A stretch of 64,000 bases of DNA from the NCBI GenBank assembly GCA_031414435.1, contig JANNVN010000123.1:1158-65157 (forward strand), written 5' to 3'. Source of the DNA: Gemmatimonadaceae bacterium (GTDB taxonomy: Bacteria; Gemmatimonadota; Gemmatimonadetes; Gemmatimonadales; Gemmatimonadaceae). Numbering within the stretch: the first letter of the stretch is position 1; every line of letters starts with the position of its first letter. Shown in pieces: positions 1,464 through 24,600 of the stretch. The translations under genes were made by a program, and so were the position numbers. The notes under the pieces were generated by a model. It was not told the DNA's origin. It searched no databases and worked only from the letters and a program-made list of their open reading frames with translations.

Positions 1464-1668
1464 GCACGGCATCCAACGACGAGCGCGCACACTCGGGCCC
1501 TGATCCCGACGCCCTGCTGCGATTGCCGCCCATCGCGCTCACCAGGGACGACTGGATCCGGCTCTACGACGCGGAGACGGTGGCGTGCTGGCCGCTGACC
1601 CCTGCGGAGCGGATGGAGACGCCCACGACCGCGATCGCCACCGCGCCGACCACTGCGGGCAGCCCCGC

Positions 1669-2394: not shown

Positions 2395-2397
2395 TGG

Positions 2398-3642: not shown

Positions 3643-3654
3643 GTGGCAGGGAGG

Positions 3655-6150: not shown

Positions 6151-6466
6151 GGTGGCGGGTTTCAGGATGCGAGAGCGAGAGCGAGTCGCTTTCAGAGTCA
6201 GGCGACCACGAGAGGGTTGTCGCCATGAGCCGGGTACGGGGTGGTGCGAAGCGTTGTTTCAGCGGGATCGAGGGCCGGCATGGGGTTCGCCGGGCCGACC
6301 AGCGACTCCCCCAGACTCTTCGAGAGCCGTCTGGCGCCGGATGCGGGCTCCGTGCGCCGGGCACTCCGACTTCCGCGGCGGAAGCCGGCACGGTGCGACA
6401 GGCGACCTGTTACCGGACGTGCCCGGGCATCGTTACTCGGGAGTACTCACTCCGTCCCCTCTGGTG

Positions 6467-7195: not shown

Positions 7196-7207
7196 GAGCG
7201 TTCGCGG

Positions 7208-7468
7208 TCAGCGCGGGGCATATGGTGTTCCGGCGCGCGGCGGCACAATCCAGATGCACCACGCGTCGGTCTTCAGCGTGGTCTTCCGGAACTTGCCCGA
7301 TGTCGGCGTACAGCGCGTGCCATCGAACGCCACGAGCGTGTCAGGCATGATCTTCTGTGTGACAGTCTTCCGTCCCAACGCGGGCGGATTCTCACCGCCA
7401 CGCAGCGGGATCGCGCAACCTCCCAGAACGGCCAGAGCCAGCAACGCGAGCGCCTTGGGTGCCATCAT
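7208..7468 (-). CDS. small putative lipoprotein
   Basis: 86 aa. MMAPKALALLALAVLGGC has a lipobox (L-G-G-C). It is convergent with the preceding gene. Confidence 0.45.
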   Translation of the reverse strand: MMAPKALALLALAVLGGCAIPLRGGENPPALGRKTVTQKIMPDTLVAFDGTRCTPTSGKFRKTTLKTDAWCIWIVPPRAGTPYAPR

Positions 7469-7675
7469 CCGTGAGAGTCAGGGTGGTCTGCTGTGGTGCG
7501 GCGGCGCTTCTGAAGACACGGTACCGAGGGGACGGGCCAGAGGCTCGAATCGGCTGAGCGGCGGCGCCGACGGGTGTCGTGATTCCAGGTGCTGGCAGCG
7601 TGGCCAAGCTGTTGCTTGCCCCTACCCAAGCCGGGGCGGTAAGGTCCTGCTCTCCCCTCTCCGCCAAAGGCTCCC

Positions 7676-10408
7676 GTGCTCGCTCTCCTCGCCGCGCTTC
7701 TGCAGGCCCAGCCGCCCGTTCCGGCACCCCAGCGCTCGGTACCCGATCCCGGCGTGATGGCGGTCGGGCAGCGCGTCACGCCAGCCGGGGTGCAGTCGAT
7801 CTTCGACGGACGCGTCGCGGGCGTCCGCTTCGGAGGAACGTCGGGTGATGTGTGGGTTGCCGTACCGGGAAGCGCCTGGCACCTCAACTGGCGTGACAAC
7901 CGCGTCCTGTCGCGGGCCGAGTTTGTGGGACGGCCGGGTGTGCACGGGCTGGCGATCGATCCGGTCACGAAGCGCGTCACCGTCTCGTCGGTCAGCAAGC
8001 TCCCGGCCGACGTGGCGGCCAGCCGGACACCCGGCGGACCACCGCTGGCCCGGGCCAAGGCGGTGGCACAACTGGTGTCCTACAGCAGCGATTCCGCGGC
8101 CGCGATCGTGACCGCGTCGGGAACCCTCGGTGATTTCATCGCAGGTGGGCCGGCCATCGCATCGAGAAAGGGCGCCGACGGACGCCGCGTCGCTGTGCTG
8201 CCGCTCCCCGCGGACGACAAACTGGCGATCCTCGATGCCGACTCAGGCGAACGCCTGCGCAGCGTGGCACTCGGCGTGCTGCCGATTGCCGCCGTCATCT
8301 CTCCGGACGGTGCCACGGCGTGGGTGACGGTGTTCGGTGGCGCCAAGCCACGCCCCGGACAACGCCGGGCGTCACAGTGTTGCGATCCGGCGGCGGAACC
8401 GGTGCGCATCAATGCGCGAGGCATCGCGCTGCCTGGCACCGTCGACCGGATCGACATTGCGACCGGTACGATCACACATCACGTCACGGTCGGCACGCAC
8501 CCCACGGGACTGGTCTGGGATCAGCTGCGCCAGCGGTTGTATGTGGCCAATGGCAACAGCGACGGCGTCAGTGTAATCGATACGCGCACCAACACGCTCG
8601 CCGGTACCATCGCAATCGCTCCGTTCCGCGAACGCAAGATCGGACTCACGCCGACTGCCGTCGCGCTCTCGCCGGACGGACAGACCCTGTTCGTCACGCT
8701 CGGTGGTGCCAACGCCGTTGCGCTCTACGACGTGCGCGGCGCAGTGGTGGGTGAGGCAGCCTTTCGTGGACTGATCCCGACCGGATGGTATCCCAGCAGC
8801 ATCGACGTCAGCGCCGATGGCGCCACGATCGCCGTGGGCACTTTGTTCGGTGTCGGCGCTGGTACCGGTCGCACCGCTGGCAAGGAAGGGCGCTACGTGT
8901 TCGCGGAGCGCGGCAGTGTGAACGTGATCGCGATGCCCAGCGCGTCCGAACTCGCCGCCTACACCACCGGCGTGGCCGAGAACAATCGCTTCCATCTGGC
9001 CGCCGGCCCCGCTGCCCCGTCGATCGCCCCGCGCGCCGGTGCCGTCGCGCAGGCCGTACCGGAGCGGCCCGGTGAGCCGAGTGTGATTCAGCACGTCGTC
9101 TACATCATTCGCGAGAACCGGACCTACGACCAGATTCTGGGCGACATCGGCAAGGGTGCCAGCGATCCGAGCCTCACGATGTACGGTCGTGACGTCACGC
9201 CGAATGCCCACGCGTTGAGTCAGCAGTTCGTGCTGCTCGATCACTTCTTTGCGTCCGGCGGCAACTCGGCCGATGGTCACAACTGGCTGACGCAGGGTGG
9301 CGAGACGGCGTATCCGATGTGGCCACTGTACTCAGGCCGCAGCTATCCCAGTGAAGGCAATGATCCGCTCACCTACTCCTCCGGTGGCTTCCTCTGGGAA
9401 GCGGCGAGGCAGAAAGGGAAGCGCGTGGTCAGCTTCGGCGAGTACGCGCCGGCGCCGAGTGATTCCATGCCCAGTATGCGGGCGCGTCTGATGGCGATGT
9501 ACCGGGATCCGTCATACACCACAGCGCGCAGTCGTCAGGAACTGAAGCGGTTGTACAACACGCGCAGTGAGATTCCGAGCCTCGACCGGATTCTGGTGCG
9601 TGAGTATCCGGGCTGGACGCAGGAAGTGCCCGACGTGATGAAGGCTGGTGTGGTGCTCGAGCACCTGAAGCAGTGGGAAGCGGCGAAGGCGATGCCGCAT
9701 CTCACGATGATCATCCTGCCGAACGATCACACGCAGGGGACCAGTGCCGGCTGGTGTACACCCGCCGCCTGCGTGGCGGACAACGATCTGGCACTCGGCC
9801 AGCTGGTGGAGTCACTCAGTCGATCGTCGGTCTGGAAATCGATGGCGATTCTGGTGGTGGAGGACGACGCGCAGAATGGCGTCGATCACATCGACGGGCA
9901 TCGCACCGTGGCGCTGGTAGCCAGCCCGTACGCGCGGCGTGGTGTGATCGACAGCACGTTCTACAGCCAGCCGAGCATGGTGAAGACGATCGAACTGATG
10001 CTCGGCCTGCCGGCGCTGACGATGTTCGATCTGGTGGCGACGGACATGCGCGCGAGTTTCATCGGGCCTACGGAGCAACCCGACTTCGCGCCGTACACGG
10101 CGTTGACGCCGAGGCAGTCGCTCTTCGAGACGAACCTGCGCGTTGGCGAGATCACTGGGCCCGATGCCGTGGCGCGAAAACGGGCAGCCGTCGCCAGTGC
10201 GCGGATGAACTTCCATGATCCCGATGCGGCGCCGACCGAGCGGCTGAATCGCATCCTGTGGGGAGCGGCGAAGGGCTGGCGTGTGCCGTATCCCGAGGTG
10301 AAGCGGTCGCTGTTCTTTCCGCTGGCGGTGGATGTGGACGATGATGACCGGGAAGAGCGTGAGGAGCAGGTGGAGCGGAAGCCGCGGCGTGTCGTACCGA
10401 AGAAGTAG
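7676..10408 (+). CDS. bifunctional YncE-like beta-propeller / phosphoesterase-family (phospholipase C/AcpA-type) protein
   Basis: The N-terminal half has YVTN-type repeats (RLYVANGNSDGVSVIDTRTNTLAGTI, GQTLFVTLGGANAVALYDV, DGATAWVTVFGG). The C-terminal half has the phosphoesterase signature VVYIIRENRTYDQILGD...GGNSADGHNW...ILPNDHTQG...VEDDAQNGVDHIDGHRT. Confidence 0.8.
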   Translation: MLALLAALLQAQPPVPAPQRSVPDPGVMAVGQRVTPAGVQSIFDGRVAGVRFGGTSGDVWVAVPGSAWHLNWRDNRVLSRAEFVGRPGVHGLAIDPVTKRVTVSSVSKLPADVAASRTPGGPPLARAKAVAQLVSYSSDSAAAIVTASGTLGDFIAGGPAIASRKGADGRRVAVLPLPADDKLAILDADSGERLRSVALGVLPIAAVISPDGATAWVTVFGGAKPRPGQRRASQCCDPAAEPVRINARGIALPGTVDRIDIATGTITHHVTVGTHPTGLVWDQLRQRLYVANGNSDGVSVIDTRTNTLAGTIAIAPFRERKIGLTPTAVALSPDGQTLFVTLGGANAVALYDVRGAVVGEAAFRGLIPTGWYPSSIDVSADGATIAVGTLFGVGAGTGRTAGKEGRYVFAERGSVNVIAMPSASELAAYTTGVAENNRFHLAAGPAAPSIAPRAGAVAQAVPERPGEPSVIQHVVYIIRENRTYDQILGDIGKGASDPSLTMYGRDVTPNAHALSQQFVLLDHFFASGGNSADGHNWLTQGGETAYPMWPLYSGRSYPSEGNDPLTYSSGGFLWEAARQKGKRVVSFGEYAPAPSDSMPSMRARLMAMYRDPSYTTARSRQELKRLYNTRSEIPSLDRILVREYPGWTQEVPDVMKAGVVLEHLKQWEAAKAMPHLTMIILPNDHTQGTSAGWCTPAACVADNDLALGQLVESLSRSSVWKSMAILVVEDDAQNGVDHIDGHRTVALVASPYARRGVIDSTFYSQPSMVKTIELMLGLPALTMFDLVATDMRASFIGPTEQPDFAPYTALTPRQSLFETNLRVGEITGPDAVARKRAAVASARMNFHDPDAAPTERLNRILWGAAKGWRVPYPEVKRSLFFPLAVDVDDDDREEREEQVERKPRRVVPKK

Positions 10409-10872
10409 GTAGCTAACATCGTGGCACGTGGCGCACGATTTGTGTTGTTGCGCCCGCCAGCGTGGCGATGCGGCGGCCATGCTGGCGAATGATGGCCCTG
10501 TCGGCCTAAAGAGAACAGAAGCACGCCTGATCTCGGTCAGCGACAATATCGATGAATTACTGTCGCTGGTCGGTTGGGACAATGGCGTGATAATGACTGA
10601 ACCGGATGCGGCGGTCTCGGCCGTCGTTCCTGCCCATGGCGCGCGCGGATGCGATCCCCACGATTCGGTCCGGCTGCGGGCCGCACCTCGATCGCCACCA
10701 GCCCGGATGCGCACGACCGATTGCGCTTGATCGCCATCCTCTCGGAGGGTCACGCGACGACGCTGCGTGCCAGAACGGCGGCTTGGCGTCCGCCGCCCCA
10801 TGGCGGAAGGGCCAGACGCTCGAGGCGCCACTGCTGTGCTGTGGTGACGAACTCCTCCGCGATATCGCGCGA

Positions 10873-10907
10873 GAATTTGTCGTTCCTAGTAACGTTATAA
10901 GGTTATG
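10873..10907. promoter_or_regulatory. isolated AT-rich patch with 8-bp palindrome TAACGTTA, about 310 nt upstream of the PKS operon; candidate operator or promoter element
   Basis: The sequence gaatttgtcgttcctagTAACGTTAtaaGGTTATg is a sharp AT island in otherwise high-GC non-coding DNA. TAACGTTA (10890-10897) is self-complementary and GTTAT is repeated 3 nt apart. No convincing sigma70 -35/-10 spacing is present. Confidence 0.2.
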
Positions 10908-11215
10908 TGCGGCACAACGGAAACCACGATCTGGTCGATGATGCATGGCGTGACCGATTTCTGCCAGAAGTCTCCAGTCGGCCGTTCGATCGGGAACACC
11001 ACGGATGTCCTGCGGCCCGTCGCTGTAGACCGCAAGGATGTGTCAGGCAATCAGCGCCGTGTGGCCTGTGTCGCCCGGTCGAGGGGCGTGACTGTGGTCC
11101 CAGACGCTCTGCGGGTCGGGAGCCTCGGGCGCCATCGTGGCATCTCGCGCGGGATGGCGCTCCGCGGAAGGGCCATGTCTGAGACGTCTCGTGTGCGTCC
11201 GCGTGAGTTTGCGCC

Positions 11216-14200
11216 ATGAGCACGACGCCCTCGGCGTCGCCGCGCGCGATCGCCATCGTTGGGATGAGCGGGCGATTTCCGGGGGCCCGGTCACTGGAGC
11301 AGTTCTGGCAGAATCTGCGCGACGGTGTGGAGTCCCTCGACACCTTCACCGAGGCTGAACTCGACGCTGCCGGCGTTGACGCGACGACTCGAGCACTCCC
11401 CGGCTGGGTGCCGCGCGGGACGGTGCTTCAGGACGCCGACCACTTCGACGCGGCGTTCTTCGGCTATTCGCCGCGTGAAGCACAGATCATCGATCCGCAG
11501 CAGCGCGTCTTTCTGGAATGCGCGTGGGAAGCGATGGAGCACGCCGGCTACGCGCGCGAGCCGGACGGGGCGATGGTGGCGGTCTACGCCGGCTCGAGCA
11601 TCAACAGCTACGTCTACAGCCAGCTGCTCCCGAACCGGGAGCTGCTGGCGTCCGTCGGCGGCTATCAGGTCATGCTCGGGAACGACAAGGATTTCCTCAC
11701 CACTCGTGCGTCATACAAACTCGATCTGCATGGACCGAGCATGGCCATCCAGACGGCATGCTCGACCTCCCTGGTGGCCGTGTACGTGGCGTGTCAGGCG
11801 CTGGTGCGTCGCGAGTGCGACATGGCGCTGGCCGGTGGTGTGTCAATCACGTTCCCGCAGCGCACCGGGTACCAGTATCAGGAGGGGATGATCTTCTCTC
11901 CGGACGGGAGCTGCCGGCCGTTCGACGCGGATTCGAAAGGAACACGCGCCGGCGCCGGGGCAGGCATCGTTGTCCTGAAGCGCCTCGAGGATGCACTCGC
12001 CGACCGGGATACGATTCACGCAGTGATTCTCGGCTCGGCCATCAACAACGATGGCGCCGGTAAGGCAGGGTACACAGCCCCGAGCATCGATGGCCAGATG
12101 GAAGTGATCGCGACCGCCCAGGCGCTGGCGGGCGTGTCGGCTGAGAGCATCTCGTACGTCGAGGCACATGGCACGGCAACACCACTTGGTGATCCGATTG
12201 AGATTGCGGCCCTGACGCGCGTGTTCCGCGAATCGACCGACGCGCGCGGATTCTGCACGATCGGTTCGCTGAAGGCCAATCTCGGGCATCTCGATGCCGC
12301 CGCCGGCGTGGCGGGGCTAATCAAGACCGTTCTGGCGCTCCAACACCGCGAACTGCCGCGTCAATTGAACTTCCGCGCGCCAAATCCGCAGTTGCAGCTG
12401 GACACGTCGCCATTCCGTGTTGCAACAACGTGCGAGCCGTGGGCTGCCGGTGCAACGCCGCGCCGCGCGGGCGTGAGCTCGTTCGGGATTGGCGGGACCA
12501 ATGCGCACGTGGTGCTCGAAGAAGCGCCGGCTGCGGCGCCGAGCGCCATCGCCCGGTCGCATCACCTCGTGGTCCTCTCGGCCAAGACCGCCGAGGCCCT
12601 CGACGCCGCGACGACGAATCTGGTCGGGTATCTGCGGCAGGATGCCGCGGCATCGCTGGCGGATGTCGCGTACACGTTGCAGGTCGGGCGCCGTCCGTTC
12701 CCGCATCGGCGCAGCGTCGTCGTCTGTGATGCCGCCGAAGCGATCACGGCCCTCAGCGCACCCGATCGCGCACCGGTGACGAGCAACGTGCACGAAGGAG
12801 CGTCGCGACCGGTGGCCTTCCTGTTCAGCGGACAGGGCAGTCAGCACGCGGGGATGTGTGCGGAGCTGTATGCACATGAACCGGCGTTTCGTGCCGCGGT
12901 CGACCGCTGCGCGGACATCCTGCACCCGCACTTCGGTCGCGACATTCGCGAACTGCTGCGCGATGGCACTGATCAGGAACTGAGCGAGACCGCGGTCGCG
13001 CAGCCGCTGCTGTTTGTGACGGGGTACGCGTTGGCCGTTCTCTGGATGTCGTGGGGCGTCCAGCCGAGCGCCATGCTGGGCCACAGCATCGGCGAGTACG
13101 TCGCGGCCCATCTGGCGGGCGTCTTCTCGCTCGAGGATGCCCTGATGCTGGTGTCCGCGCGCGGCCGCCTCATGCAGGAGATGCCTCCAGGCGAAATGCT
13201 CGCCGTGCGCCTCGCAGCAGATGCACTGACGCCTCGCCTGGGCCCCGGCGTTGAAATCGCTGCGATCAACGCTCCTGCGATGTGCAGTGTGTCAGGCACG
13301 AGGGAGGCGATCGCGGCGCTGGCGGCGCAGTTGGAGCAGAGCGGCATCGAGCATCGACCACTGCATACGTCACACGCATTTCACTCGGCGATGATGGAAC
13401 CGGTGCTCGCGCCGTTTCGCGCGCAGGTGGCGCGTGTGTCCCTGTCGGCGCCGCGGATTCCGTACGTGTCGAATGTGACTGGGACCTGGATCCGTCCAGA
13501 GCAGGCGACGTCGCCCGACTACTGGGCGTCACATCTGCGCGGCACAGTGCGATTCGCAGAGGGCGTTGCGACGCTGATCGCTCATCAGTCAGTGCAGCTC
13601 CTCGAGGTCGGTGCGGGGAATGCGCTGGCCTCGCTGACGCGGCTGACGCTCGGCCGCGACGGAGCGTCGCGCGTGACCGCATCGTTGCCGCATCCCCGTG
13701 AAGCGCGACGTGAGCTCGAGACGATGTTGGATGCGGTGGGTCGACTGTGGGTCAGCGGCGTTGCGGTTGATTGGGCGGGTATCAATGCAATGGCGTCGCT
13801 ACGGCGTGTACCACTGCCGACCTACCCGTTCGAGCGCAAGCGTCATTGGGTCGACGCCCCGAAGCCTGCGCCAGACGCCGTCGCGCGCTTGTACCGGCGC
13901 GAGGCGCTGGATGACTGGTTCTACACGCCCACATGGACGCGCGCACCGCTGGCTCGGAATCGACTGCTGCCGCTGGACGGCACGTGGCTCGTATTCGGCC
14001 GGGCGGATGCACTCGAGGCGGCCGTTCTCGAGCGGCTGCGCGCGCGCGGTGCGTCAGTCATCGCCGTCGGCGCAGGGGAGCAATTCACGTCGGGTGACGA
14101 GCGATTCGTGGTGCGCGGTGCGGACCCGCGCGACTACGAATCACTCATCCGCACACTTCGGGACAAGGGGGCTGATCTTCGCGGTGTCATTCATCTCTGG

Positions 14201-15778
14201 AATGTGGGGCCGATCGGGAATGCGAATGCTGCCCGGGATACCTCGCTTCACGCGATCGCCGCACTCGGGCGGGCGCTGCTGATCGAATCACCGGCGGCGT
14301 CGTTGCGACTGGTGGTTGGGACGACCGGCGCGCAGAGCGTGCATGGTGAGCCTGTGCAATACGCGGATCGTGCGCTGTCGACCGGCCCGGTGCTGGTACT
14401 GCCGATGGAGCACGCCGGCGTAGGTGCGAGTACGATCGACCTCGATGGCGCCACGGCCCGCGTTGGCTGGCGTGACGAGGCGGCACGACAGCTCGTCGAA
14501 GAGGCGTCAATTGACGACGCGGACGCGCTGGTTGCGGTCCGGTCCGGCGAACGCTGGGTCCGTCGATTCGTCGGTGGGGCACTCCCGAGAACCGAGACCC
14601 TGGCAGCGACGTTGACGCACCGCGGTGTCTGTCTGGTGACCGGAGGACTTGGCGGTATCGGCGTGACTCTGGCCGAGTGGCTGGCTCGCAATGTGTCGGC
14701 ACGGTTGGTTCTGACCTCTCGGACGGCACTGCCGAACCGTGGCGAGTGGGATGCGTGGCTGGCGGCGCACGACGGGTCGGATCCGACGTCGCAGCGCATC
14801 CGGGACATCGAGCGAATCGAGGCGGCTGGTGGCGAGGTTGTCGTGATCGGTGCGGACATTGCAAGCGTGACGGAAATGCGGAGTGCACTGGCCGCTGTCG
14901 AGGCTGGTTGGGGGCCTGTCACGAGTGTGATTCACGCCGCTGGCATTGCTGGTGACGGGTTGCTGGCGCTTTCGAGTCGCGATCATGCAGAAGAGGTGAT
15001 CAGTGCCAAGGTCGCGGGGTTGGACTGCCTCGTGGCTGTGCTCGGCGATCACGCCATGGAATTTGTGGTGCTGTGCAGCTCGATCAACGTGGTCGGCGGG
15101 GTCGCGGGGACTTACGCATACACGGCTGCCAACGCGTACCTCGACGCCTTCGCGGTGTCGGCGCAGCGGCCGGTGGGATGGCGGACGGTCTCGATTGCGT
15201 GGGATGCCTGGCGGGATGTCGGGATGGCGTCGAAGGTTGTGGTCCCGGATGCCATGCGCGCGGCTCGAGCGGCGTACGTCGCGGCCGGTATTTCACCGGC
15301 CGCTGGTGCGGACGCCTTCGCGCGCTGCCTCGAAAGCGGGTTCGCTCAGCAGGTCGTGTCGCCGTATGACATCGAGACGGCGCTGATCGATCGTCGGCGA
15401 TTACGCTCGGCCGCGCCCACAATCGTCGAGACCCGTCGCGCCGAAGCCCATGCGGCAGAAGTGTCGTCGGAGGGCAGGCCATCGTCTGCACACGTCGCCC
15501 CGGCAGGGGAAGTGGAGGAACGGCTGGCGTCAATCTGGGAGGAGCTCTTGGGCGTTACGCCGGTCGGAGTGCACGACAATTTCTTTGATCTGGGTGGTCA
15601 TTCGCTGCTGGCCACCCGTGTACTGGCGCGGATCGACAGCACCCTGGGCGTGCGCCTGCCGCTGCGAGACGTGTTCAGCGCGCCGACGATCCGGCTGCTT
15701 GGCGGCCTGATCGAGGCGCAGCTGCAGTCGGCGGCTGTTGCTGCGCATGGCGGTGAACGCGAAGAGTTTGAGTTGTGA
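11216..15778 (+). CDS. type I PKS, KS-AT(malonyl-type)-KR-T, with an NRPS-type carrier domain
   Basis: KS motifs: QTACSTS (Cys codon 11759-11761), EAHGTATPLGDPIE, KANLGHLDAAAG. AT motifs: GHSIGE (Ser codon 13085-13087) and HAFHS. Linker PLPTYPFERKRHW. KR motifs: VTGGLGGIG (about 14638-14661), YAYTAANAY, HAAGIAGDG. Carrier: DNFFDLGGHSLLATR (Ser codon 15602-15604). The KS begins at about residue 10, so there is no loading or docking region. C-terminal tail ...GGEREEFEL. Confidence 0.93.
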   Translation: MSTTPSASPRAIAIVGMSGRFPGARSLEQFWQNLRDGVESLDTFTEAELDAAGVDATTRALPGWVPRGTVLQDADHFDAAFFGYSPREAQIIDPQQRVFLECAWEAMEHAGYAREPDGAMVAVYAGSSINSYVYSQLLPNRELLASVGGYQVMLGNDKDFLTTRASYKLDLHGPSMAIQTACSTSLVAVYVACQALVRRECDMALAGGVSITFPQRTGYQYQEGMIFSPDGSCRPFDADSKGTRAGAGAGIVVLKRLEDALADRDTIHAVILGSAINNDGAGKAGYTAPSIDGQMEVIATAQALAGVSAESISYVEAHGTATPLGDPIEIAALTRVFRESTDARGFCTIGSLKANLGHLDAAAGVAGLIKTVLALQHRELPRQLNFRAPNPQLQLDTSPFRVATTCEPWAAGATPRRAGVSSFGIGGTNAHVVLEEAPAAAPSAIARSHHLVVLSAKTAEALDAATTNLVGYLRQDAAASLADVAYTLQVGRRPFPHRRSVVVCDAAEAITALSAPDRAPVTSNVHEGASRPVAFLFSGQGSQHAGMCAELYAHEPAFRAAVDRCADILHPHFGRDIRELLRDGTDQELSETAVAQPLLFVTGYALAVLWMSWGVQPSAMLGHSIGEYVAAHLAGVFSLEDALMLVSARGRLMQEMPPGEMLAVRLAADALTPRLGPGVEIAAINAPAMCSVSGTREAIAALAAQLEQSGIEHRPLHTSHAFHSAMMEPVLAPFRAQVARVSLSAPRIPYVSNVTGTWIRPEQATSPDYWASHLRGTVRFAEGVATLIAHQSVQLLEVGAGNALASLTRLTLGRDGASRVTASLPHPREARRELETMLDAVGRLWVSGVAVDWAGINAMASLRRVPLPTYPFERKRHWVDAPKPAPDAVARLYRREALDDWFYTPTWTRAPLARNRLLPLDGTWLVFGRADALEAAVLERLRARGASVIAVGAGEQFTSGDERFVVRGADPRDYESLIRTLRDKGADLRGVIHLWNVGPIGNANAARDTSLHAIAALGRALLIESPAASLRLVVGTTGAQSVHGEPVQYADRALSTGPVLVLPMEHAGVGASTIDLDGATARVGWRDEAARQLVEEASIDDADALVAVRSGERWVRRFVGGALPRTETLAATLTHRGVCLVTGGLGGIGVTLAEWLARNVSARLVLTSRTALPNRGEWDAWLAAHDGSDPTSQRIRDIERIEAAGGEVVVIGADIASVTEMRSALAAVEAGWGPVTSVIHAAGIAGDGLLALSSRDHAEEVISAKVAGLDCLVAVLGDHAMEFVVLCSSINVVGGVAGTYAYTAANAYLDAFAVSAQRPVGWRTVSIAWDAWRDVGMASKVVVPDAMRAARAAYVAAGISPAAGADAFARCLESGFAQQVVSPYDIETALIDRRRLRSAAPTIVETRRAEAHAAEVSSEGRPSSAHVAPAGEVEERLASIWEELLGVTPVGVHDNFFDLGGHSLLATRVLARIDSTLGVRLPLRDVFSAPTIRLLGGLIEAQLQSAAVAAHGGEREEFEL

Positions 15779-15945
15779 CACAGCAGACCACAGGCGAACT
15801 CCTCGACCAATTGCGCGCACTCGATGTCCGAGTGCGCGTGGAAGACGGACGGCTCCGCATCAACGCGCCCAAGGGGAGTCTGACGCCGGCGCTCGAAGCC
15901 GCGCTGGTCGCGCACCGGGAAGCTCTGGTCGCGGCGCTCGAAGAC
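15775..15945 (+). other. TubC-type N-terminal (beta-hairpin) docking domain of the NRPS
   Basis: GELLDQLRALDVRVRVEDGRLRINAPKGSLTPALEAALVAHREALVAALE fits the pattern L..L...GV.LW.EG..LR..AP.G.LT.EL...L..HK.E....L that I recall for TubC_N-type docking domains. Confidence 0.7.
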
Positions 15946-18900
15946 CAGGGAATCGGCGCCGGTCGTCCCGCGCTGGCGCCCGTGCTGCGGTCCGGTCCCC
16001 TGCGGCTGTCGTTTCTGCAGGAGCGCTTGTGGGTGATCCAGCAGCTGCAGCCGGATTCCACGGCATATAACCTCGTGATGTTGGCGCAGGAACAGGACGG
16101 CGTCGAACTGCCGCTCCTGCAGGCGGCGATCCGCGGTGTCGTCGAGCGTCACGAGATCCTTCGTGCTCGGTTTGCATCCGAGGGCGGCGCGCCGCACGTG
16201 CGCATCACGGTGGCAGAAGAGACGCGGGTCGTGTTCCGTGATCTGCGGGCGCTGGCACGCGACGAACAGCAGGCGATCATCAGCCAGGCTGTTCCCGTCG
16301 CGACACGCGAACCGTTCGATCTGGCCGCGGAGGCGGCGGTCCGGTTCACGATTCTGCAGACCGGTGACCGGCGATGCGCGTTGCTGATCGCTGCGCACCA
16401 TATCGCCCTCGACTCGTGGTCGCTCCCGGTGCTGCTCCGCGATCTGCTGATCGAGTATGAGACGCAGCAACGCGGCGCTGGCGACGCGCGGCCACCCTTG
16501 ACGCTGCAGTACGTGGACTATGCCCACTGGCAGCGTGAGACCATGGTGGCGGCCGGCGCGCAAGCGCGCCTCAAGTACTGGACAGACCGCCTTGCCGCCT
16601 TGCCGCAGCTGAGCACTTTCCCCACCGACCGGCCGCGTGCCATCGACGCGGTCGGCACGGGAGCGGTGTACGATTTCGCGTGGTCGCCGACGCTGTATGC
16701 CGGGGTTCGTGCATTGGCGCGTGAGCTCGACGCCACCGTGTACATGGTGCTATTGGCGGCGGTGGCCGTTCTGCTGACGAGATGCACGGCGCAGTCGGAT
16801 GTGGCGATCGGCAGTCCACTCGGGACACGGGACCTGTCGGAGCTGGAAGGGATGCTCGGGCCAATCCTGAATCCGCTCGTGACGCGCTTCGACGTGAGTG
16901 ACGATCCGACCTTTGCCGGAGTGGTTCAACGCGCCCGGGATGGCTTGCTGGATGGGCACTCACATCAGGACGTCCCATTTGAAGCGCTGGTGCAAGCGCT
17001 CAACCCCGCACGTTCGCTCGGGCATTCACCACTGTTCCAGGTCGCGGTCGTACTGCACAATGCTCCTGGCACGGGCGAAACACCGTCGATCCACAGCGGT
17101 GGTGCGATCTATGATCTGACCGTCTTCGCCGTGGAGCGCGCAGGCGCGCTGTACTGTTCGTTCGAGTATCGCTCAGATCTGTATGACGAGGCAACCATCG
17201 CGCGCCTCAGCACGCAACTTCAAACCGTGCTGAGTGCTGCAGTGCGCGACCCACAGCTAACGGTCTCGGGCATTCCGCTGCTCCCGGAGTCCGACGCAGC
17301 GCTGCTGATCGAGGCGACGAATCCCGCACCGATTGCCCTCGACCGGACGACGGTCGTGGAGCAGTTCACCCGGACCGTCGCCGCCAACGCTGCTCGCGTT
17401 GCTGTAGTGGCGTCGGACGGCACGTTCACCTACGCGGAAATCGACCGGCGCGCCTCGATCGTTGCTGAGGTCTTGCGCGCGGCAGGTGCCGGTCGCGGTT
17501 CGTTCGTCGCCCTCGCCACAGATCGTTCCAGCGCGACGGTGGTCGGTGCGCTCGGCATCCTCAAGTCGGGCGCCGCGTACGTGCCGGTCGACGTCTCGTA
17601 TCCGGCGGATCGTGTGGCGTTCATGCTCAGCGACAGTGGCGCGCGACATGTCGTGGCGACGCGGGAGAGTCTGCGGTCACTGCCCGGCCTCGGGTCGGGC
17701 GCGACACTGGTCCTGGTGGACGAAGTGGTCGATGCACCACCGTCCGCGGCGGCGGCACCGATGCCCCCCGTGCGCGAGGACGACATCGCCTACCTGATGT
17801 ACACCTCCGGTTCAACCGGAACGCCGAAGGGTGTGCTCGTCCCGCATGGGGCCGTCAGCAGCTTTCTGGGTGCGATGCGCTTACGCCCGGGGATATCGGT
17901 CGATGACGCGGTGCTGTGCGTCACATCGATGTCGTTTGATATCTCGGTCTTCGAAGTGTTCCTGCCACTGGTGACCGGTGCACGGACGATCATCGCATCG
18001 CGCGAGGAGGCCAGCGATGGACACCGAATGGCGCACCTGATTGGATCCGCCAGAGCCACAATTGTCCAGTCCACGCCGTCCGGCTGGCGACTGCTGATGC
18101 AGGCGAACTGGTCTGGCGGGCCGGAGATCTCGGCGATCGCCGGCGGCGAGCCGATGCCACAGGATCTGACCAACTGGCTCGGGGAGCGGGTCCGGTGGGT
18201 CTGGAACGGGTATGGTCCCACGGAAGCGACGGTGTACTCGTCGATGGCGCTCCTTACCGGCGCTGACATGATCACCATCGGCACGCCCGCCGCGAACACG
18301 CGAATTTATGTCCTCGATACGTCCAACCACGTCTTGCCGATCGGAGTGCCAGGCGAAATTTGCATCGGCGGCGATGGGGTCACACGCGGATACCACAACC
18401 GACCGGAACTGACGGCTGACCGATTCGTTGCCGACCCGTTCGTTTCCGGCGCCAGGATGTATCGCACCGGCGACGTCGGGCGTTGGCGTGCCGATGGCCG
18501 CCTCGAGCACCTCGGCCGGATCGATGGGCAGGTGAAGGTGCGCGGCTATCGGATCGAGACCGGTGAGATCGAGACGGCGCTTTCACAGCACCCGGGTGTG
18601 CGAACCGCAGTCGTCGGTGTCCGCAATGCCTCAGCGGACGATCCGCGACTGGTGGCCTGGGTGCAGCTCGAGCCGGAGGGCGATTGCACCACGAGCGAAT
18701 TGCGGCGGTACCTCCGCCAGACGTTGCCGGAGTTCATGATTCCATCGATGCTTATCATGGTCGAGTCGTTTCCATTGACGCCGAACGCCAAGATTGACAA
18801 GCGGGCACTACCTGATCCGTTTCTCAACGGGAGCGCCGCATCGCCGGAGTACATGGCGCCGACGACCCCGACCGAACGACTGATCGCGGCCGTCTGGTCG

Positions 18901-19104
18901 CGCCTGCTTGGCGTGGAGCGTATCGGCACCACGGACGCCTTCTTCGAACTGGGTGGGCATTCGTTGCTGGCCATGCGCGCGGCACTGGAGATTTCTGAGG
19001 CGACTGGTGTGCGGCTCGAGCCGCGCCTTCTCTTTTTCCGCACTCTGGATCAATTGGCCGTGGCCTGTGACACGCAGCTATCCGCCGGTTCGCGTCGCGC
19101 ATGA
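15775..19104 (+). CDS. NRPS module, Ndock(TubC-type)-C-A-PCP
   Basis: C domain: LSFLQERLWV and HHIALDS (16396-16416). A-domain cores: FTYAEIDRR, LKSGAAYVPVD, YTSGSTGTPKG, FDIS, NGYGPTEA, GEICIGGDGVTRGY, YRTGD, GRIDGQVKVRGYRIE, LPEFMIPS, NAKIDK. PCP: FFELGGHSLLA (Ser codon 18961-18963). The protein ends about 46 aa after that Ser, so no TE, R or E domain fits. Its GTG start overlaps the upstream stop (GTGA). Confidence 0.93.
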   Translation: MTQQTTGELLDQLRALDVRVRVEDGRLRINAPKGSLTPALEAALVAHREALVAALEDQGIGAGRPALAPVLRSGPLRLSFLQERLWVIQQLQPDSTAYNLVMLAQEQDGVELPLLQAAIRGVVERHEILRARFASEGGAPHVRITVAEETRVVFRDLRALARDEQQAIISQAVPVATREPFDLAAEAAVRFTILQTGDRRCALLIAAHHIALDSWSLPVLLRDLLIEYETQQRGAGDARPPLTLQYVDYAHWQRETMVAAGAQARLKYWTDRLAALPQLSTFPTDRPRAIDAVGTGAVYDFAWSPTLYAGVRALARELDATVYMVLLAAVAVLLTRCTAQSDVAIGSPLGTRDLSELEGMLGPILNPLVTRFDVSDDPTFAGVVQRARDGLLDGHSHQDVPFEALVQALNPARSLGHSPLFQVAVVLHNAPGTGETPSIHSGGAIYDLTVFAVERAGALYCSFEYRSDLYDEATIARLSTQLQTVLSAAVRDPQLTVSGIPLLPESDAALLIEATNPAPIALDRTTVVEQFTRTVAANAARVAVVASDGTFTYAEIDRRASIVAEVLRAAGAGRGSFVALATDRSSATVVGALGILKSGAAYVPVDVSYPADRVAFMLSDSGARHVVATRESLRSLPGLGSGATLVLVDEVVDAPPSAAAAPMPPVREDDIAYLMYTSGSTGTPKGVLVPHGAVSSFLGAMRLRPGISVDDAVLCVTSMSFDISVFEVFLPLVTGARTIIASREEASDGHRMAHLIGSARATIVQSTPSGWRLLMQANWSGGPEISAIAGGEPMPQDLTNWLGERVRWVWNGYGPTEATVYSSMALLTGADMITIGTPAANTRIYVLDTSNHVLPIGVPGEICIGGDGVTRGYHNRPELTADRFVADPFVSGARMYRTGDVGRWRADGRLEHLGRIDGQVKVRGYRIETGEIETALSQHPGVRTAVVGVRNASADDPRLVAWVQLEPEGDCTTSELRRYLRQTLPEFMIPSMLIMVESFPLTPNAKIDKRALPDPFLNGSAASPEYMAPTTPTERLIAAVWSRLLGVERIGTTDAFFELGGHSLLAMRAALEISEATGVRLEPRLLFFRTLDQLAVACDTQLSAGSRRA

Positions 19105-19886
19105 ATCTCCAGTTCTTCGGTTCCTCCAGCCGACAGTTGTTCGGCGCGTATCGCCCCCCCGCCAATGGCCTGCCATCGCGTGGTGCGGCGTTGCTCTGTC
19201 CTCCCTGGGGACAGGAGTACCTCGTCTCGCACCGGATCTTCCGCCGACTGGCCGTACGGCTGAGCGAGAGTGGATATCACGTCCTGCGCTTTGACTACTA
19301 CGGCACGGGGGATTCGGCCGGCGAGCGCGAGGAAGGCGACCTTCAGTCGTGGCTGGGTGACGCGCTGGTGGCGCTCGAGGAGCTCCGCGACATCTCGGGG
19401 TGTCAGACGGTGGCCACCTTTGGCATTCGGCTCGGGGCGATCGTCGCCTGGCAGCTCGCTTGTACGCGGAGCGACGTGCACAGCACGGTGTTGTGGGATC
19501 CAGTCGTGGATGGCTCGGAGTACGTGAGAGAGCTGGTCAAGGCGCAGGCTGAGGTGGATCGCTGGCTGCTGACCCCCGTGCGACATGAGTCGTCTCCTGA
19601 CCGGGCGCAGGACCTGCTTGGATTTCCGCTGACGGTGGCCATGCGCCGAAGCATTGAAGCCGTCACGCCGGACATCTTCCTGCACCGCACGGCAGCGCAT
19701 GTGAAACTGTTCTACTCAGACGCCCTGCCCGGTCAGGAGAAGAGTCACGACGCATTTCACGCAGCTGGGACGCCGTTTCATGCGGAGACAATCCGTGGTC
19801 AGACGCCGTGGCGCGAGGATGAGTCGATTGGCGCCGGCGGACTGCCGGTGCTGGTGCTCGAACGCATGGTCGAGATCCTTCGATGA
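19101..19886 (+). CDS. alpha/beta-hydrolase-fold protein with Arg at the nucleophile position (probable pseudoenzyme); resembles 'exosortase A system-associated hydrolase 2'
   Basis: PPWGQEYLVSHRIFRRLAVRLSESGYHVLRFDYYGTGDSAG is an oxyanion/beta3-type region. The nucleophile elbow reads TVATFGIRLGAIVA, i.e. G-I-R-L-G, with Arg110 at codon 19428-19430. There is no obvious C-terminal catalytic His motif. ATGA overlaps at both ends. Confidence 0.65.
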   Translation: MNLQFFGSSSRQLFGAYRPPANGLPSRGAALLCPPWGQEYLVSHRIFRRLAVRLSESGYHVLRFDYYGTGDSAGEREEGDLQSWLGDALVALEELRDISGCQTVATFGIRLGAIVAWQLACTRSDVHSTVLWDPVVDGSEYVRELVKAQAEVDRWLLTPVRHESSPDRAQDLLGFPLTVAMRRSIEAVTPDIFLHRTAAHVKLFYSDALPGQEKSHDAFHAAGTPFHAETIRGQTPWREDESIGAGGLPVLVLERMVEILR

Positions 19887-20833
19887 ACTCAGGCATCCGC
19901 GAGCGGGTGGTGCGATTCGGTGCGGGAAACGGTCTGGCTGGCATTCTGTCGACCAGCCGTGACGCTCCCCCCGGTTTGCCGTTCGTGGTAATCGTGAATG
20001 CGGGCATCATCCATCGGGTCGGTCCCAATCGGCTCTATGTCGATGTCGCGCGCGCGGTCGCGGCGCTCGGGTATCCGGTCCTGCGATTCGACCTCGCGGG
20101 CCTCGGTGACTCCGAAGCGACCCGTACCGAAGCATCGTTACTTGAATCGGCGTTGCTCGACGTGAACACCGCGTTCGACTACCTGGCCAGCACGCATGGC
20201 GCGACTGCGTTCCTCGCATTTGGCCTGTGCTCCGGTGCGAACTACGCCCTGCTGACCGCGTTCAGGGAGCCGAGGGTCATCGGCGTTCTGGTCATCGACC
20301 CGACGGTGACACGTACGCGGCGGAGCGTGATGGTGCATTACGCACGTCGATTGAGAAACCTGTCGACGCTGCGCTCGATGCTGACGCTGAGCCACCCCAA
20401 GTTTCTGCAGCGAATCGAACGCCTGCGCAGTCTGGCGGTCGCGCGCGCGGCGCAGGGACAGAGTGGGCAAAACGCCGAGCCACCTCGCGAGAAAGTCACG
20501 GCCGAGGACAGCCGCCGTTCGCTCGAACAGCTGATCGCGCGGGGTACGCAGCTGATGTTCGTGTTCACGGGTGGCGTCAACCACGTGTACAACTACCGGA
20601 ACCAGCTGTACGACCTGCTGCCGGGGTTCGACTTTCGCGGCCGGCTGCGTCTGGACTACATGCCCGACACAGATCACACCGTGAGCGATGGGCGCGGACG
20701 CCGTCAGTTGATCGATTCGGTGAGCGAGTGGCTGGCGCAGTCGTTTCCCCGCACGGGTGCAACAGACACAGCGGTGTCCGCGATCGTCGAACCACCGCGA
20801 GCGGTGGTGGGTCGTGTGGGAGACTCGCCGTGA
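19883..20833 (+). CDS. alpha/beta-hydrolase-fold protein with Cys nucleophile (GLCSG); resembles 'exosortase A system-associated hydrolase 1'
   Basis: VVIVNAGIIHRVGPNRLYVDVARAVAALGYPVLRFDLAGLGDSE. The elbow AFLAFGLCSGANYAL is G-L-C-S-G, with Cys116 at codon 20228-20230. A candidate catalytic His lies in LDYMPDTDHTVSD near the C-terminus. Confidence 0.65.
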   Translation: MNSGIRERVVRFGAGNGLAGILSTSRDAPPGLPFVVIVNAGIIHRVGPNRLYVDVARAVAALGYPVLRFDLAGLGDSEATRTEASLLESALLDVNTAFDYLASTHGATAFLAFGLCSGANYALLTAFREPRVIGVLVIDPTVTRTRRSVMVHYARRLRNLSTLRSMLTLSHPKFLQRIERLRSLAVARAAQGQSGQNAEPPREKVTAEDSRRSLEQLIARGTQLMFVFTGGVNHVYNYRNQLYDLLPGFDFRGRLRLDYMPDTDHTVSDGRGRRQLIDSVSEWLAQSFPRTGATDTAVSAIVEPPRAVVGRVGDSP

Positions 20834-21606
20834 GGGCCGCTGGTGCGGTGCCGACATTGCTGCGTCTGGGCGACAGGAAGGCGCCGCGTCGGCGCCTGTT
20901 CTGCATGCCGTATGCGGGTGGCGGCGTTGCGCCGTTTCGCCTCTGGCATCGCACGCTGCCGGCCGACATCGAGGTGCTGGCGGCGCAGTTGCCGGGGCGT
21001 GAGTCGCGGCTGCGCGAGGCTCCGCTGCCATCGATTGCCGCGATGGTCGATGCGGTCCTCCCGGCGGTGGAGGCCTCGTCTGACCTGCCCTACGCCATTT
21101 TCGGGCACAGCATGGGTGCGCTGATCGCGTTCGAGCTCGCGGCGGCACTCGAGCTGCGCGACATCCGTCCGCCATCGCACCTCTTCGTTTCTGCGCGTCG
21201 GTCGCCCGAAGAACTGGACACGCGGACACCGATTCACGCGCTGCCGGAGCGCGAATTCCTGGATGAGATGCAGGCCCGCTATGGCGCCGTGCCGGATGCC
21301 ATCAGGAGCGAGCGCGAGCTGCTCGATCTGCTGCTACCGGTGGTACGCGCTGACATCTGCGCTGTGGAGACGTACGCGATGTCACCGGAGACCAGAGTCT
21401 GCTGTCCCGTCGACGTGTATGGTGGTGTCGATGACACACATCCCACACCGGCACAGTTGCCCCGCTGGGAGCGTGTGGCCGCGCAACCGGTTCGGGTGCG
21501 CATGTTCCCAGGGGACCACTTCTTCGTGAACACACAGCGTGATGCTGTGACAGCCGACATCGCGGCGCGATGGACCTGCGATGTTGCCGAGGAAGCACGC
21601 GCATGA
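20830..21606 (+). CDS. type II thioesterase (GrsT/RifR-like editing TE)
   Basis: GTG 20830 overlaps the upstream stop (GTGA). Motifs: RRLFCMPYAGGG, the GHSMG elbow (Ser codon 21109-21111), and C-terminal PGDHFF. The 20227 start of the long ORF lies inside the previous gene in another frame. Confidence 0.88.
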   Translation: MRAAGAVPTLLRLGDRKAPRRRLFCMPYAGGGVAPFRLWHRTLPADIEVLAAQLPGRESRLREAPLPSIAAMVDAVLPAVEASSDLPYAIFGHSMGALIAFELAAALELRDIRPPSHLFVSARRSPEELDTRTPIHALPEREFLDEMQARYGAVPDAIRSERELLDLLLPVVRADICAVETYAMSPETRVCCPVDVYGGVDDTHPTPAQLPRWERVAAQPVRVRMFPGDHFFVNTQRDAVTADIAARWTCDVAEEARA

Positions 21607-24600
21607 TCGGTGGTGGGTCGTCTCCGGAACGTCCGATGCCGATTGCGATCGTCGGCATCGGCTGCCGCTTTCCGGGGGGGATCGTCGACACGGAGACGTT
21701 CTGGCGGGTGCTGGCCGACGGTGTCGATGCGATCTCGGAGATCCCGGCGGACCGCTTTGACGTGGCGAAGTACTACGACGAGCGGCCCGGCACGCGCGGC
21801 CGCATCATGACGAAGTGGGGCGGCTTCGTGAATCAGCGTCTCGAGGAATTCGATGCCGCATTCTTCGGCATTTCTCGCTCGTACGCCGAACGGCTCGATC
21901 CGCAACAGCGCCTGCTGCTGGAGACGAGCTGGGAGGCGATGGAAGATGCGGGCATTGATATCGTCGGACTGCGCGGCACCCCGACGGGCGTCTTCGTGGG
22001 GCAGTGGGTGAGCGACTTCGAGCATCGGCTGTTTGCCGACCCCAGTGGCATCGACTTCCAGATGGCGATGGGCAGCGGCCGCTACGCCGCGGCCGGACGG
22101 CTGTCGTATGCCTTCGGGTTTCGGGGGCCGAGTCTGTCCATCGACGCCGCGTGTTCATCCGGGCTGGCATCAGTGCATCTCGCCGTGCGCAGCCTGCGCA
22201 GCGGTGACAGCGAGATCGCGCTGGCTGGTGGGGTGAACATGATTCTGCAGCCGCACATCCATCTGGCATACTCGTACAGCCGGATGATGGCGGCGGATGG
22301 CCGGTGTCGATTTGGTGATGCGCGCGGCAGTGGCTACGTGCGTTCGGAAGGTGCGGGGATCGTGGTGCTCAAGCCACTCGCGGCGGCCGTCGCGGCGGGC
22401 GATCGCATCTACGCGGTGATCCGCGGGAGTGCGGTCAACAGCGACGGCGACAGCAGCGGCTCGATGGGTCGACCGAGTCGCCTGGGCCAGGAAGAGCTGC
22501 TGCGCAGCGCGTTGCGTGATGGCAACGTGCTCGCATCACAACTCGACTACGTCGAGGCACATGGGACAGGTACGCGTGCAGGTGATCCGGTGGAGCTGGC
22601 TGCGCTGGGAGCGGTGCTATCAGAGGGGCGCGCGGCGAACGCACCACGGGTGTGGGTTGGTTCGGTGAAGACCAACATCGGCCACACGGAAGCGGCGGCA
22701 GGAGTCGCCGGTCTGATCAAGACGGCATTGATGCTCGAGCGCGGCCAGATTCCGGCCAGTCTGCACTTCGACGAACCGAATCGCGAGGTGGCGTGGCAGG
22801 ACATTCCTCTCGCGATCCCAACCGGCATGATGGTGTGGCCGCGGCGGGACGGCATGCGCGTTGCGGGGGTGAGCTCGTATGGCATCGGCGGAACCAACGC
22901 GCATGTGGTACTCGAGTCGGCACCCGCAGTTGTCGGGAATTCCGCTGCCCACCATCGGGTGGCGAACCCCATCGCGCTGCTGCCACTGTCGGCGCGCGGG
23001 GTGCCCGCGCTGCGCGCGATGGCCGCGCGTTATGCGGACCTGCTGTCGAACACCGACGGGCCATTACTCCACGACGTCTGCTGGAGTGCGGCGACGCGAC
23101 GGTCAGCGCTGACCCATCGTGCGGCGTTCGTCGCGACGGACCGTGAATCGATGGTGAGCGCCCTGCGTGCGTTCGCCGCCGGCGATGCCGCCACTGCCGA
23201 TGGTGTGGTGCACGAGCCGCGTCGTCGTCGGATTGCATTCGTGGTGCCGGGGCAAGGCGCGCAGTGGGTCGGGATGGCGCGGGAGCTTGCCGCAGCCGCT
23301 CCGGTGTTCCGTGATACGTTGGCTGCCTGTGATGCGGCCGCGCGTACGCATACCGGATGGTCGATTGTCGAGCAGCTGCATCTGGATGTCGAGGCGGCGG
23401 GCTACCGCGGTGATCGGATCGACGTCATCCAACCGACGCTGGTTGCGATCGCCATCGCCTATGCGGCCTGGCTCAGGTCACTCGGCATCGAACCGGATGC
23501 CGTCGTCGGGCACAGCCTCGGCGAGGTCGGTGCCGCGGCCATTTCGGGCGCACTGGATGTTCAGACGGCTATGCGCATCATCGTCCAGCGCAGCGCACTG
23601 ATGCAGCGGACGAGCGGCCATGGTGCAATGGCGGTCGTGGAGCTCCCGAGCCAGGATGTGACTCAGCGACTGCGCGGCCGCGAAGCCGAGCTGTGTCTGG
23701 CCGTGAGCAACAGCCCGCGCTCGAGTGTGATATCGGGTACACCCGCAGCGGTCGGCGCGATGCTCGCCGAACTGCAAGTTGAGGGCGTCTTCTGCAGACT
23801 GGTGAAGGTCGACGTTGCGTCGCACAGCCCGCAGATGAATCCGCTCGCGACGGAGCTGGTCGACGCGCTCGCGGACATCCGGCCTTCGGTGGGCAGCGTG
23901 CCGATCTACTCCACCGTACAGGCTGCACCGCTTGAAGGGACGTCGTTCGATGCCGCGTACTGGGGCCGGAACCTCACGCACCCGGTGCTGTTCGGTGACA
24001 CCGTTGAGCGAATGCTGTCCGACGGGATCGACGCGTTCATTGAATTGGGTCCGCATCGGGTGCTGTCGCAGGCGGTGGAGCAGGTGGCAGCGTCCTCCGC
24101 TCACCACGCGCTTGCGGTGGCGTGTGGCCGGCGCGAGTCGCCTGAGCTGGCGGCGGCGTTTGGTGTGATTGCGGCGCTCTGGACGCACGGCGTCGCCATC
24201 GGGTGGGCGCGCGTGCTGGGGTGGCGCGGCTGTTCCGTGGCGCTGCCGCTGTATCCGTGGCAACGGGAGCGGTTCTGGGCCGAGGCCGCAGAGCTCACGG
24301 AGACCGGCACCGTCGGGGCGCGCCGGACGCGCTTGTCCCCGCAGGCGCAGCGCGCGCTGCATGTCCTGGAGTGGCACCCCCTGCCGGCTGCCGTTGCGCC
24401 TGTCGGCGACCGGAGCGCGCGCTGGCTGGTGGTCGCGAGTACGCAGGCCGATGGGGAGCCTGTCGCGGCTGCCCTGCGCGCGCGAGGTCAGAGTGCCACG
24501 GTCGTGCACTCCATGCAGGCGGCCGGGGAACTGGTCCGCGAGTGGCCGGTCTCGAATGTGCCGACTGGTGTCGTCGTCTTGCCACCGGACGAAGTGCCCG

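Follow-up and report, generated by a model that had tools for sequence, protein, structure and literature searches.

Statine-type gamma-amino-beta-hydroxy acids are known as the 4-amino-3-hydroxybutyrate of microsclerodermins, the isostatine of didemnins and a unit in hapalosin. A comparable junction, in which a ketosynthase (KS) that accepts chains from a nonribosomal peptide synthetase (NRPS) follows an amino-acid module and is joined by a malonyl-type acyltransferase (AT), a ketoreductase (KR) and a carrier leading to a condensation (C) domain, is suggested by our analysis of a 64,000-nucleotide stretch of DNA from a Gemmatimonadaceae bacterium (the window; G000:C123:1158-65157), part of a metagenome-assembled genome (MAG G000) of 5.6 Mb in 558 contigs, 89% complete and 3% contaminated. 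The analysis centers on two coupled genes, G1 (11216-15778), a polyketide synthase (PKS) module with the order KS-AT-KR-thiolation domain (T), and G2 (15775-19104), an NRPS module. Based on domain content, motifs, synteny, KS and C-domain phylogenies, a gene relic and the conservation of docking tails and heads, from which transfer steps and substrates are predicted, we propose that G1 and G2 probably form the final pair of modules in a single linear PKS-NRPS hybrid line of nine modules. The nearest relatives of G1 show the order ...A-T-KS-AT-KR-T-C-A... (A, adenylation domain). Unlike in the statine-type examples, the unit would here end a variable, reduced and C-methylated polyketide, and would be followed by a single glycine-like module and an unusual release set.

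The line also shares features with systems that dock through a short linear motif (SLiM) and a beta-hairpin head, i.e. TubB-TubC, EpoA-EpoB, enacyloxin Bamb_5917-5915 and rhabdopeptide Kj12, in particular a TubC_N domain in front of a C domain and acidic tails, and PDB matches of its docks and C domains include TubC 2jug, EpoB 5t7z and 6cgo. Unlike in these systems, the glycine NRPS that stands before G1 in relatives, here termed N0, has in Gemmatimonadaceae a second TubC_N that lies internally, between its two C domains. Its first dock-C1 unit resembles enacyloxin Bamb_5915 (PDB 6cgo) as a TubC-type head and C domain without an A domain and peptidyl carrier protein (PCP) of its own; however, C1 of N0 is fused to a complete module and the 6cgo match is weak (67 bits). 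The predicted product shares with ornithine, glycine and serine-glycine lipids the character of an acyl-glycine-type amphiphile that has an amide linkage and a 3-hydroxyl. In contrast to these lipids, that hydroxyl would sit on a glycine-derived C4 spacer rather than on a fatty acid, and nothing found points to a piggy-back ester. The system is of an ordinary kind, a hybrid PKS-NRPS, in an uncharacterized family of a little-studied phylum; our literature search found no Gemmatimonadota PKS/NRPS products of this kind, and no sequence link of the cluster to any characterized cluster was established.

The PKS module G1 and the NRPS module G2

G1 corresponds to a modular cis-AT type I PKS module comprising a KS (residues 10-386, E 3e-72; window 11243-12373), an AT (535-850, 1e-57; 12818-13765), a KR (1137-1334, 3e-41; 14624-15217) and a PP-binding carrier (1435-1497, 9e-16; 15518-15706), as identified using Pfam; like the other window features described below from the relic before G1 to the EamA-type transporter gene, it lies on the forward strand. 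The catalytic Cys/His/His of the KS are intact (TACSTS, HGTAT and NLGH, with TACSTS in place of DTACSSS), the AT is of the malonyl type (GHSIG...HAFH), the KR Tyr is present (YTAAN) and the carrier is PCP-like (GGHSL). G1 is intact and under purifying selection, with an open frame of 1520 codons and a dN/dS of 0.15 overall and 0.07 in the KS against its closest ortholog, that of genome G003 (89% identity in the KS and 69% elsewhere). Private changes at otherwise invariant columns are in moderate excess in G1, with 45 versus 17 in its G003 sister.

No docking head precedes the KS, which is truly headless because the open reading frame (ORF) already uses the first start codon that follows a stop, leaving no room for an upstream extension. 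Pfam detected no AT-acyl carrier protein (ACP), FAAL or GNAT loading elements in G1, and KSQ-type decarboxylative loading was rejected, as the active-site Cys is present. Headlessness is, moreover, no mark of a starter, because all G1 orthologs are without a head and yet sit behind N0; they are internal modules in all cases, and none acts as a loading module by position.

The type of the KS was assessed in a phylogeny of 148 KS domains, drawn from Gemmatimonadaceae clusters and from the 79 loci closest to G1. The G1 KS falls within a supported clade (0.80-0.99) of 20 KSs, in which 16 of the 19 other members stand directly after A-T and the remaining three have an unresolved context. Within this set of 79 loci, the focal KS follows A-T in 40, and the 22 with nothing upstream form a separate, mostly alphaproteobacterial clade; the combination of nothing upstream and a C domain downstream, i.e. 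a headless KS-AT-KR-T followed by C, occurs in 0 of the 79. When ranked against the PDB, the G1 KS matches best to KSs of hybrid NRPS/PKS and AT-less systems (4wky 582 bits, ClbC 442 and ClbK 425, versus 377 for CurL and 337 for DEBS), while CurL and DEBS rank top for the KS of the PKS at 21603. Judged by phylogeny and by the position of its orthologs, the G1 KS belongs to the 'hybrid' type predicted to accept chains from an NRPS. A KS that lacks a head on a MAG contig need not be a starter, and the tempting misannotation as one is corrected here. Loci L088-L113 of Rhizobiales, Rhodobacterales and other Alphaproteobacteria form a separate clade of truly headless KS-AT-KR-(DH)-T proteins of ~1840 aa (DH, dehydratase); many of these loci, mainly in Rhizobiales, have an opposite-strand A-T gene ~4.5 kb upstream, and others have none or one downstream.

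G2 follows with a 4-nt overlap (GTGA, joining the stop of G1 and the start of G2), as found at every junction from G1 through the 21603 PKS. It comprises a TubC_N dock (residues 8-55, E 5e-13; 15796-15939), a Condensation domain (77-511, 2e-85; 16003-17307) with the motif HHIALD, an AMP-binding domain (531-1006; 17365-18792) with the A-domain Lys in NAKIDK, and a PP-binding domain (1036-1095; 18880-19059), and hence has the C-A-PCP make-up of an NRPS elongation module. In PDB ranking the C domain is closest to elongation C domains (240 bits with 5u89 and 233 with Txo2), and the starter-type C1 of CDA PS1, at only 29 bits, ranks among its weakest matches; by this sequence ranking it is an ordinary elongation type rather than a lipoinitiating starter C domain. 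The A-domain code DIFQIGGVY, a member of the conserved variant DI[LFV][QT]IG[GA][VI][YW], is glycine-like. Neither a C-terminal docking tail nor a thioesterase (TE) or reductase (R) domain was found in G2. An initial annotation of this DNA, which described the 11216 and 15775 proteins as a coupled KS-AT-KR-T and C-A-PCP bimodule, is borne out by domains, motifs and gene overlap, and the chemistry it put forward, one malonyl extension and ketoreduction to a 3-hydroxyacyl thioester on the carrier followed by addition of one amino acid by C-A-PCP, is sound.

A glycine NRPS in relatives, its relic and a second locus

The pair of alpha/beta-hydrolase-fold proteins encoded behind G2, H3 (19101-19886) and H4 (19883-20833), recurs within the genus, as found by a search with H4 followed by comparison of the neighborhoods. 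In five of five complete same-genus clusters (genomes G003, G007, G012, G017 and G005), N0 (~1655 aa) lies directly before G1, and upstream of N0 there is an Sfp-type phosphopantetheinyl transferase (PPTase) and an ABC transporter. The N0-G1-G2-H3-H4-TE block is constant in all five, and the PKS line varies in module number and type; the whole cluster of the window is syntenic in G003 (59-86% identity), and in G007 synteny extends through the third PKS. N0-G1-G2-H3-H4, with a single C domain in N0, is also present in three Rhodobacterales genomes, and N0-G1 with a G2-like module in Acidobacteriaceae. These arrangements outline a head-group cassette of glycine NRPS, KS-AT-KR-T module, glycine-like NRPS and Arg/Cys hydrolase pair that, in Gemmatimonadaceae, Rhodobacterales and Acidobacteriaceae, is combined with polyketide tails that vary.

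The N0 of Gemmatimonadaceae has the architecture TubC_N-C-TubC_N-C-A-PCP, and both C domains retain HHxxxD. The extra N-terminal TubC_N-C and the internal TubC_N occur only in this family (L119:1395-6359:- and G003), and only one head and one C domain are present in the homologs of Rhodobacterales and Acidobacteriaceae; in the C-domain tree, C2 of N0 is the ortholog of the single C domain of the Rhodobacterales N0. The A-domain code, read by motif anchors, is DILQLGMIW without variation in nine orthologs from two phyla, and this is a published glycine signature (PMC12283262).

In the window, the 807-nt leader before G1 is not empty. Positions 10673-11003 match N0 residues 1263-1373, in the A domain, as three colinear tblastn segments in three frames (two frameshifts) with 46%, 43% and 64% identity (E 2e-16), whereas a control search with the A domain of G2 gives no match to the region. 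The relic still reads ...TETTIWS..., and closer to G1, 11157-11215 is homologous to the 3' end of N0 and the intergenic region of G003 (blastn, 71-72% identity).

An intact N0, with two TubC_N, two Condensation domains, A and PCP, is present in the same MAG on contig C33 and is 69% identical to the N0 of G003. An Sfp-type PPTase and ABC genes lie before it and a second copy of the PKS module, G1', lies behind it, with an RND gene also at the locus, where the contig ends C300-C33-C411 overlap by ~130 nt (L119, L120). G1' is complete, with 1519 aa, all motifs and the tail GEREEFEL; downstream of it there is a convergent lipoprotein gene and no G2. As the G1' locus stops where the window cluster begins, the arrangement argues that both loci belong to one genome, and we infer that this holds for the window and the C33/C411 loci. 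G1' is closest to the orthologs of G012 and G017 (87% identity in the KS and 68-70% elsewhere), and the C-domain tree gives the same split; the differing nearest relatives of G1 and G1' make the cluster look chimeric rather than freshly duplicated. Past the end of C411, a search for overlaps of contig ends found only a 464-nt match (93% identity) and a ~130-nt repeat to C87/C527, and no link to contig C123 of the window. The repeat, common to several contig ends and a relative, lies at C411 4500-4641, C87 322-450 and 3308-3449, C527 5229-5356 and G005:C36 15229-15308.

Assembly, docking and release

Six PKS modules are encoded at 21603-58016. The 21603 PKS is headless, with a methylmalonyl-type AT (RIDVIQ/VASH) in the order KS-AT-KR-ACP, and the following five have the domain orders KS-AT-DH-ER-KR-ACP, KS-AT-cMT-ACP, KS-AT-DH-cMT-ER-KR-ACP, KS-AT-DH-cMT-KR-ACP and KS-AT-DH-ER-KR-ACP (ER, enoylreductase; cMT, C-methyltransferase). 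Coiled-coil heads are found on the five PKSs from 26214 to 51546, and matching acidic helices end the five preceding proteins. The first PKS of the line is headless in every case; in Gemmatimonadaceae and one genome of Acidobacteriaceae the TE gene lies immediately in front of the gene for this PKS, a link that may be relevant to the priming of the line. The KSs of these TE-adjoining first PKSs (window 20830-26207; L045 5869-6663 / 680-5857) form a clade of their own.

Besides the coiled coils, the contig encodes a sole TubC-type head, that of G2, versus two candidate tails, EREEFEL at the end of G1 (15755-15775) and VWEEGSL at the end of the last PKS (57993-58013). As reviewed in PMC9113145, the carrier upstream of such a head is bound through a C-terminal motif of fewer than 15 residues, a given motif may serve several heads, and for rhabdopeptide synthetases both recruitment of several heads by one tail and iterative use are documented. 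The G1 tail reads G[DE]REEFEL in all five same-genus orthologs and in G1', EE[FI]EEFVL in Rhodobacterales and REEVEI in Acidobacteriaceae; the last-PKS tail reads SWEEGSL in G003, DDWESGVL in G007, where the gene is on the opposite strand, and EEWEESLI and EAWDETVI in Rhodobacterales. Acceptors that begin with a TubC_N and donors whose carriers end in a short acidic tail together have the make-up of SLiM/beta-hairpin docking pairs, and tails of the WEEGSL and EEFEL types both fit TubC-type heads. N0 would account for the docking puzzle of one head versus two tails. Its own C-terminal tail, M-x-R-A-R-x-R-A, is conserved in both phyla.

We propose the following order for the nine modules: six PKS modules, N0 (Gly), G1, G2 and release. 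The chain would start at the headless 21603 PKS, and the five further modules would extend it via the coiled-coil docking pairs, with units 1-3 predicted as a methylmalonyl-derived hydroxy, a saturated and an alpha-methyl (or gem-dimethyl) beta-keto unit, and units 4-6 as methyl-branched saturated, methyl-branched enoyl and saturated. The WEEGSL tail of the last PKS (51546) would then dock on the TubC-type head of N0 (dock-C-dock-C-A-PCP), which likely forms polyketide-acyl-Gly-S-PCP. Next, the KS of G1 would take over the acyl-glycyl chain, one malonyl unit would be added and the KR would reduce it, yielding a 4-(acylamino)-3-hydroxybutyryl thioester on the PCP-like carrier. Guided by docking of the G1 EEFEL tail on the TubC-type head of G2, the G2 C domain presumably adds a small, glycine-like amino acid. 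As the window holds only the N0 relic, the N0 and PPTase of the C33/C411 locus would act in trans on the window cluster. The product structure to seek is 4-amino-3-hydroxybutyryl-Gly(-like) carrying, through an amide bond, an acyl chain of branched polyketide origin, and heterologous expression must take in the second locus. A colinear order of G1, G2 and the 21603 PKS was rejected, given that G2 is tailless, that the KS at 21603 belongs to the canonical cis-AT type and that the gene order is lost in G007 and Rhodobacterales.

With no release domain in G2, off-loading would be carried out by the H3/H4 pair and the free-standing type II-like TE (20830-21606; Pfam, GHSMG). H3 has an Arg at the nucleophile elbow (FGIRLGA), and H4 has a Cys (FGLCSGA) and a C-terminal DTDH. 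The elbow Arg (GxRLG) and Cys (GLCSG) are invariant in Gemmatimonadaceae, in Rhodobacterales and in a MAG of Chromatiales, with 33-38% identity, in loci that include L046, L049, L065, L073 and those of the same genus. The best NCBIfam matches are TIGR03101 hydr2_PEP for H3 (89.7 bits, cut-off 202.75) and TIGR03100 hydr1_PEP for H4 (87 bits, cut-off 168.45). Genes of these two families form a tandem alpha/beta-fold pair next to a carrier protein. The context here is instead NRPS/PKS, unlike in the exosortase A system, and with scores far below the family cut-offs H3 and H4 appear to be, at most, distant relatives of exosortase A-associated hydrolases 2 and 1 that fall outside these families. 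PDB sequence searches with H3 and H4 returned generic esterases only, protein names in a large database were generic, and a literature search on exosortase-associated hydrolases found nothing. P0079 (517 aa), a natural fusion of an H4-like hydrolase and a PF00975 thioesterase domain, is a hint that H4 works jointly with the TE. In G006:C183 (L026/L027, 12345-19989), H3-H4 follows two successive dock-C-A-PCP modules, the first with the tail ...RRELEL, and within the ~41 kb examined neither a PKS domain nor a TE was detected; the presence of the pair behind an NRPS-only system fits a general off-loading role. Tetramate release was rejected on the grounds of an active KR and reduced upstream modules.

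Several points weigh against the nine-module line. The family of biosynthetic gene clusters is uncharacterized and has no known product, and our literature search turned up no published counterpart of the G2 A-domain code. N0 lies off the window contig in a fragmented MAG, and the C33/C411 locus could stem from another population; with a G003-like G1 and a G012/G017-like G1', judged by their sequences, the history is not a simple duplication. The tail-head pairs are candidates drawn solely from conservation, and in Gemmatimonadaceae there are three candidate TubC-type heads for two tails, leaving the extra dock-C1 of N0 without an assigned role.

Competing readings and surroundings of the cluster

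The initial annotation pictured a different logic, in which an acyl-primed G1 and G2 generate an N-(3-hydroxyacyl)-amino acid, and the chain of an independent six-module line is esterified to its 3-hydroxyl, or otherwise attached, by the Cys-elbow hydrolase, as in an ornithine- or glycine-lipid-like product. The six-module line and the Cys hydrolase are present as described, as is the type II TE, and the proposal is in keeping with a G1 that has neither an upstream partner on the contig nor a docking head, with the sister clade of truly headless KS-AT-KR-T proteins in Alphaproteobacteria and with the Cys of H4, the nucleophile also of acyl-shuttling alpha/beta hydrolases. Acyl shuttles of the SyrC/CmaE type are marked by a Cys-His-Asp triad, and of such features the elbow Cys and the C-terminal DTDH were seen in H4. 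We nevertheless regard it as very improbable. A missing head is the norm in this family, whose members stand behind N0; the KS clade is NRPS-fed, the stand-alone bimodule has no counterpart among the 79 relatives, and both a relic before G1 and an intact N0 exist in the MAG, all of which argues against acyl priming. The tail of the six-module line suits a TubC-type head in front of a C domain rather than a hydrolase, contrary to its supposed independence, and transfer of the chain to the 3-hydroxyl by H4 is unlikely as the conserved pair also follows the NRPS-only two-module system. Neither OlsB/GlsB- nor OlsA/GlsA-type acyltransferases were detected by Pfam in the window ORFs scanned, at odds with a lipid of that class. 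The linear alternative given in the same annotation, six PKSs, then 11216, then the NRPS, comes closer, although it missed the glycine module between the PKS line and 11216.

The state of the window cluster itself invites another explanation, namely that N0 has been lost and the WEEGSL tail of the last PKS docks directly on the G2 head, giving an N-(polyketide-acyl) amino acid and leaving G1 idle, redundant or decaying. Only a relic stands in front of G1, one head is available on the contig for two tails of the EExxL type, known for their promiscuity (PMC9113145), and G1 carries the 45 unique changes noted above. We consider this bypass unlikely, since G1 has kept its full frame, all catalytic motifs and a low dN/dS while the relic has decayed to 43-64% identity, and since the same MAG also has N0 and the PPTase in intact form, at a locus that stops exactly where the window cluster begins. 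N0 may also be used differently from what we propose for the nine-module line: its two dock-C units could take the last PKS and the G1 carrier onto the same Gly-S-PCP, with the G1 tail serving both N0 and G2 and the Gly-C2(OH) unit possibly repeated before G2 terminates the chain. Two heads and two intact C domains for a single A-PCP speak for such use, and one tail with several heads as well as iteration are documented for rhabdopeptide synthetases (PMC9113145); however, C2 is orthologous to the single C domain of N0 in Rhodobacterales, where that domain must be the acceptor for the PKS line, and the similarity of the inner head to the G2 head may reflect common descent only, as N0 residues 528-1600 are 39% identical to G2. 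Dual-donor use on its own appears quite improbable. A broader version, rather unlikely in our estimate, combines it with the history of the locus, the window being half of a chimeric split cluster in which a G012-like PPTase-N0-G1' part and a G003-like part (relic, G1, G2, hydrolases, TE and six PKSs) are both retained with their PKS-module copies, N0 takes two donors with a repeatable Gly-C2(OH), and release occurs by an undescribed Arg/Cys-elbow pair related to exosortase-A-associated hydrolases.

In the surroundings of the cluster, a scan for promoters and terminators in the leader before G1 found nothing. The left flank (window 1682-10363; ABC-HlyD-MacB, an ORF of unknown function and a phosphoesterase) is 79-85% identical at the DNA level to G005:C36:3378-13545, which is an ordinary chromosomal block with no adjoining PKS cluster. 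The similarity stops ~45 nt before the phosphoesterase stop, and the left border of the cluster is therefore a rearrangement point. On the right, an EamA-type transporter gene (57995-58930) follows the last PKS gene and occupies the same position in G003.

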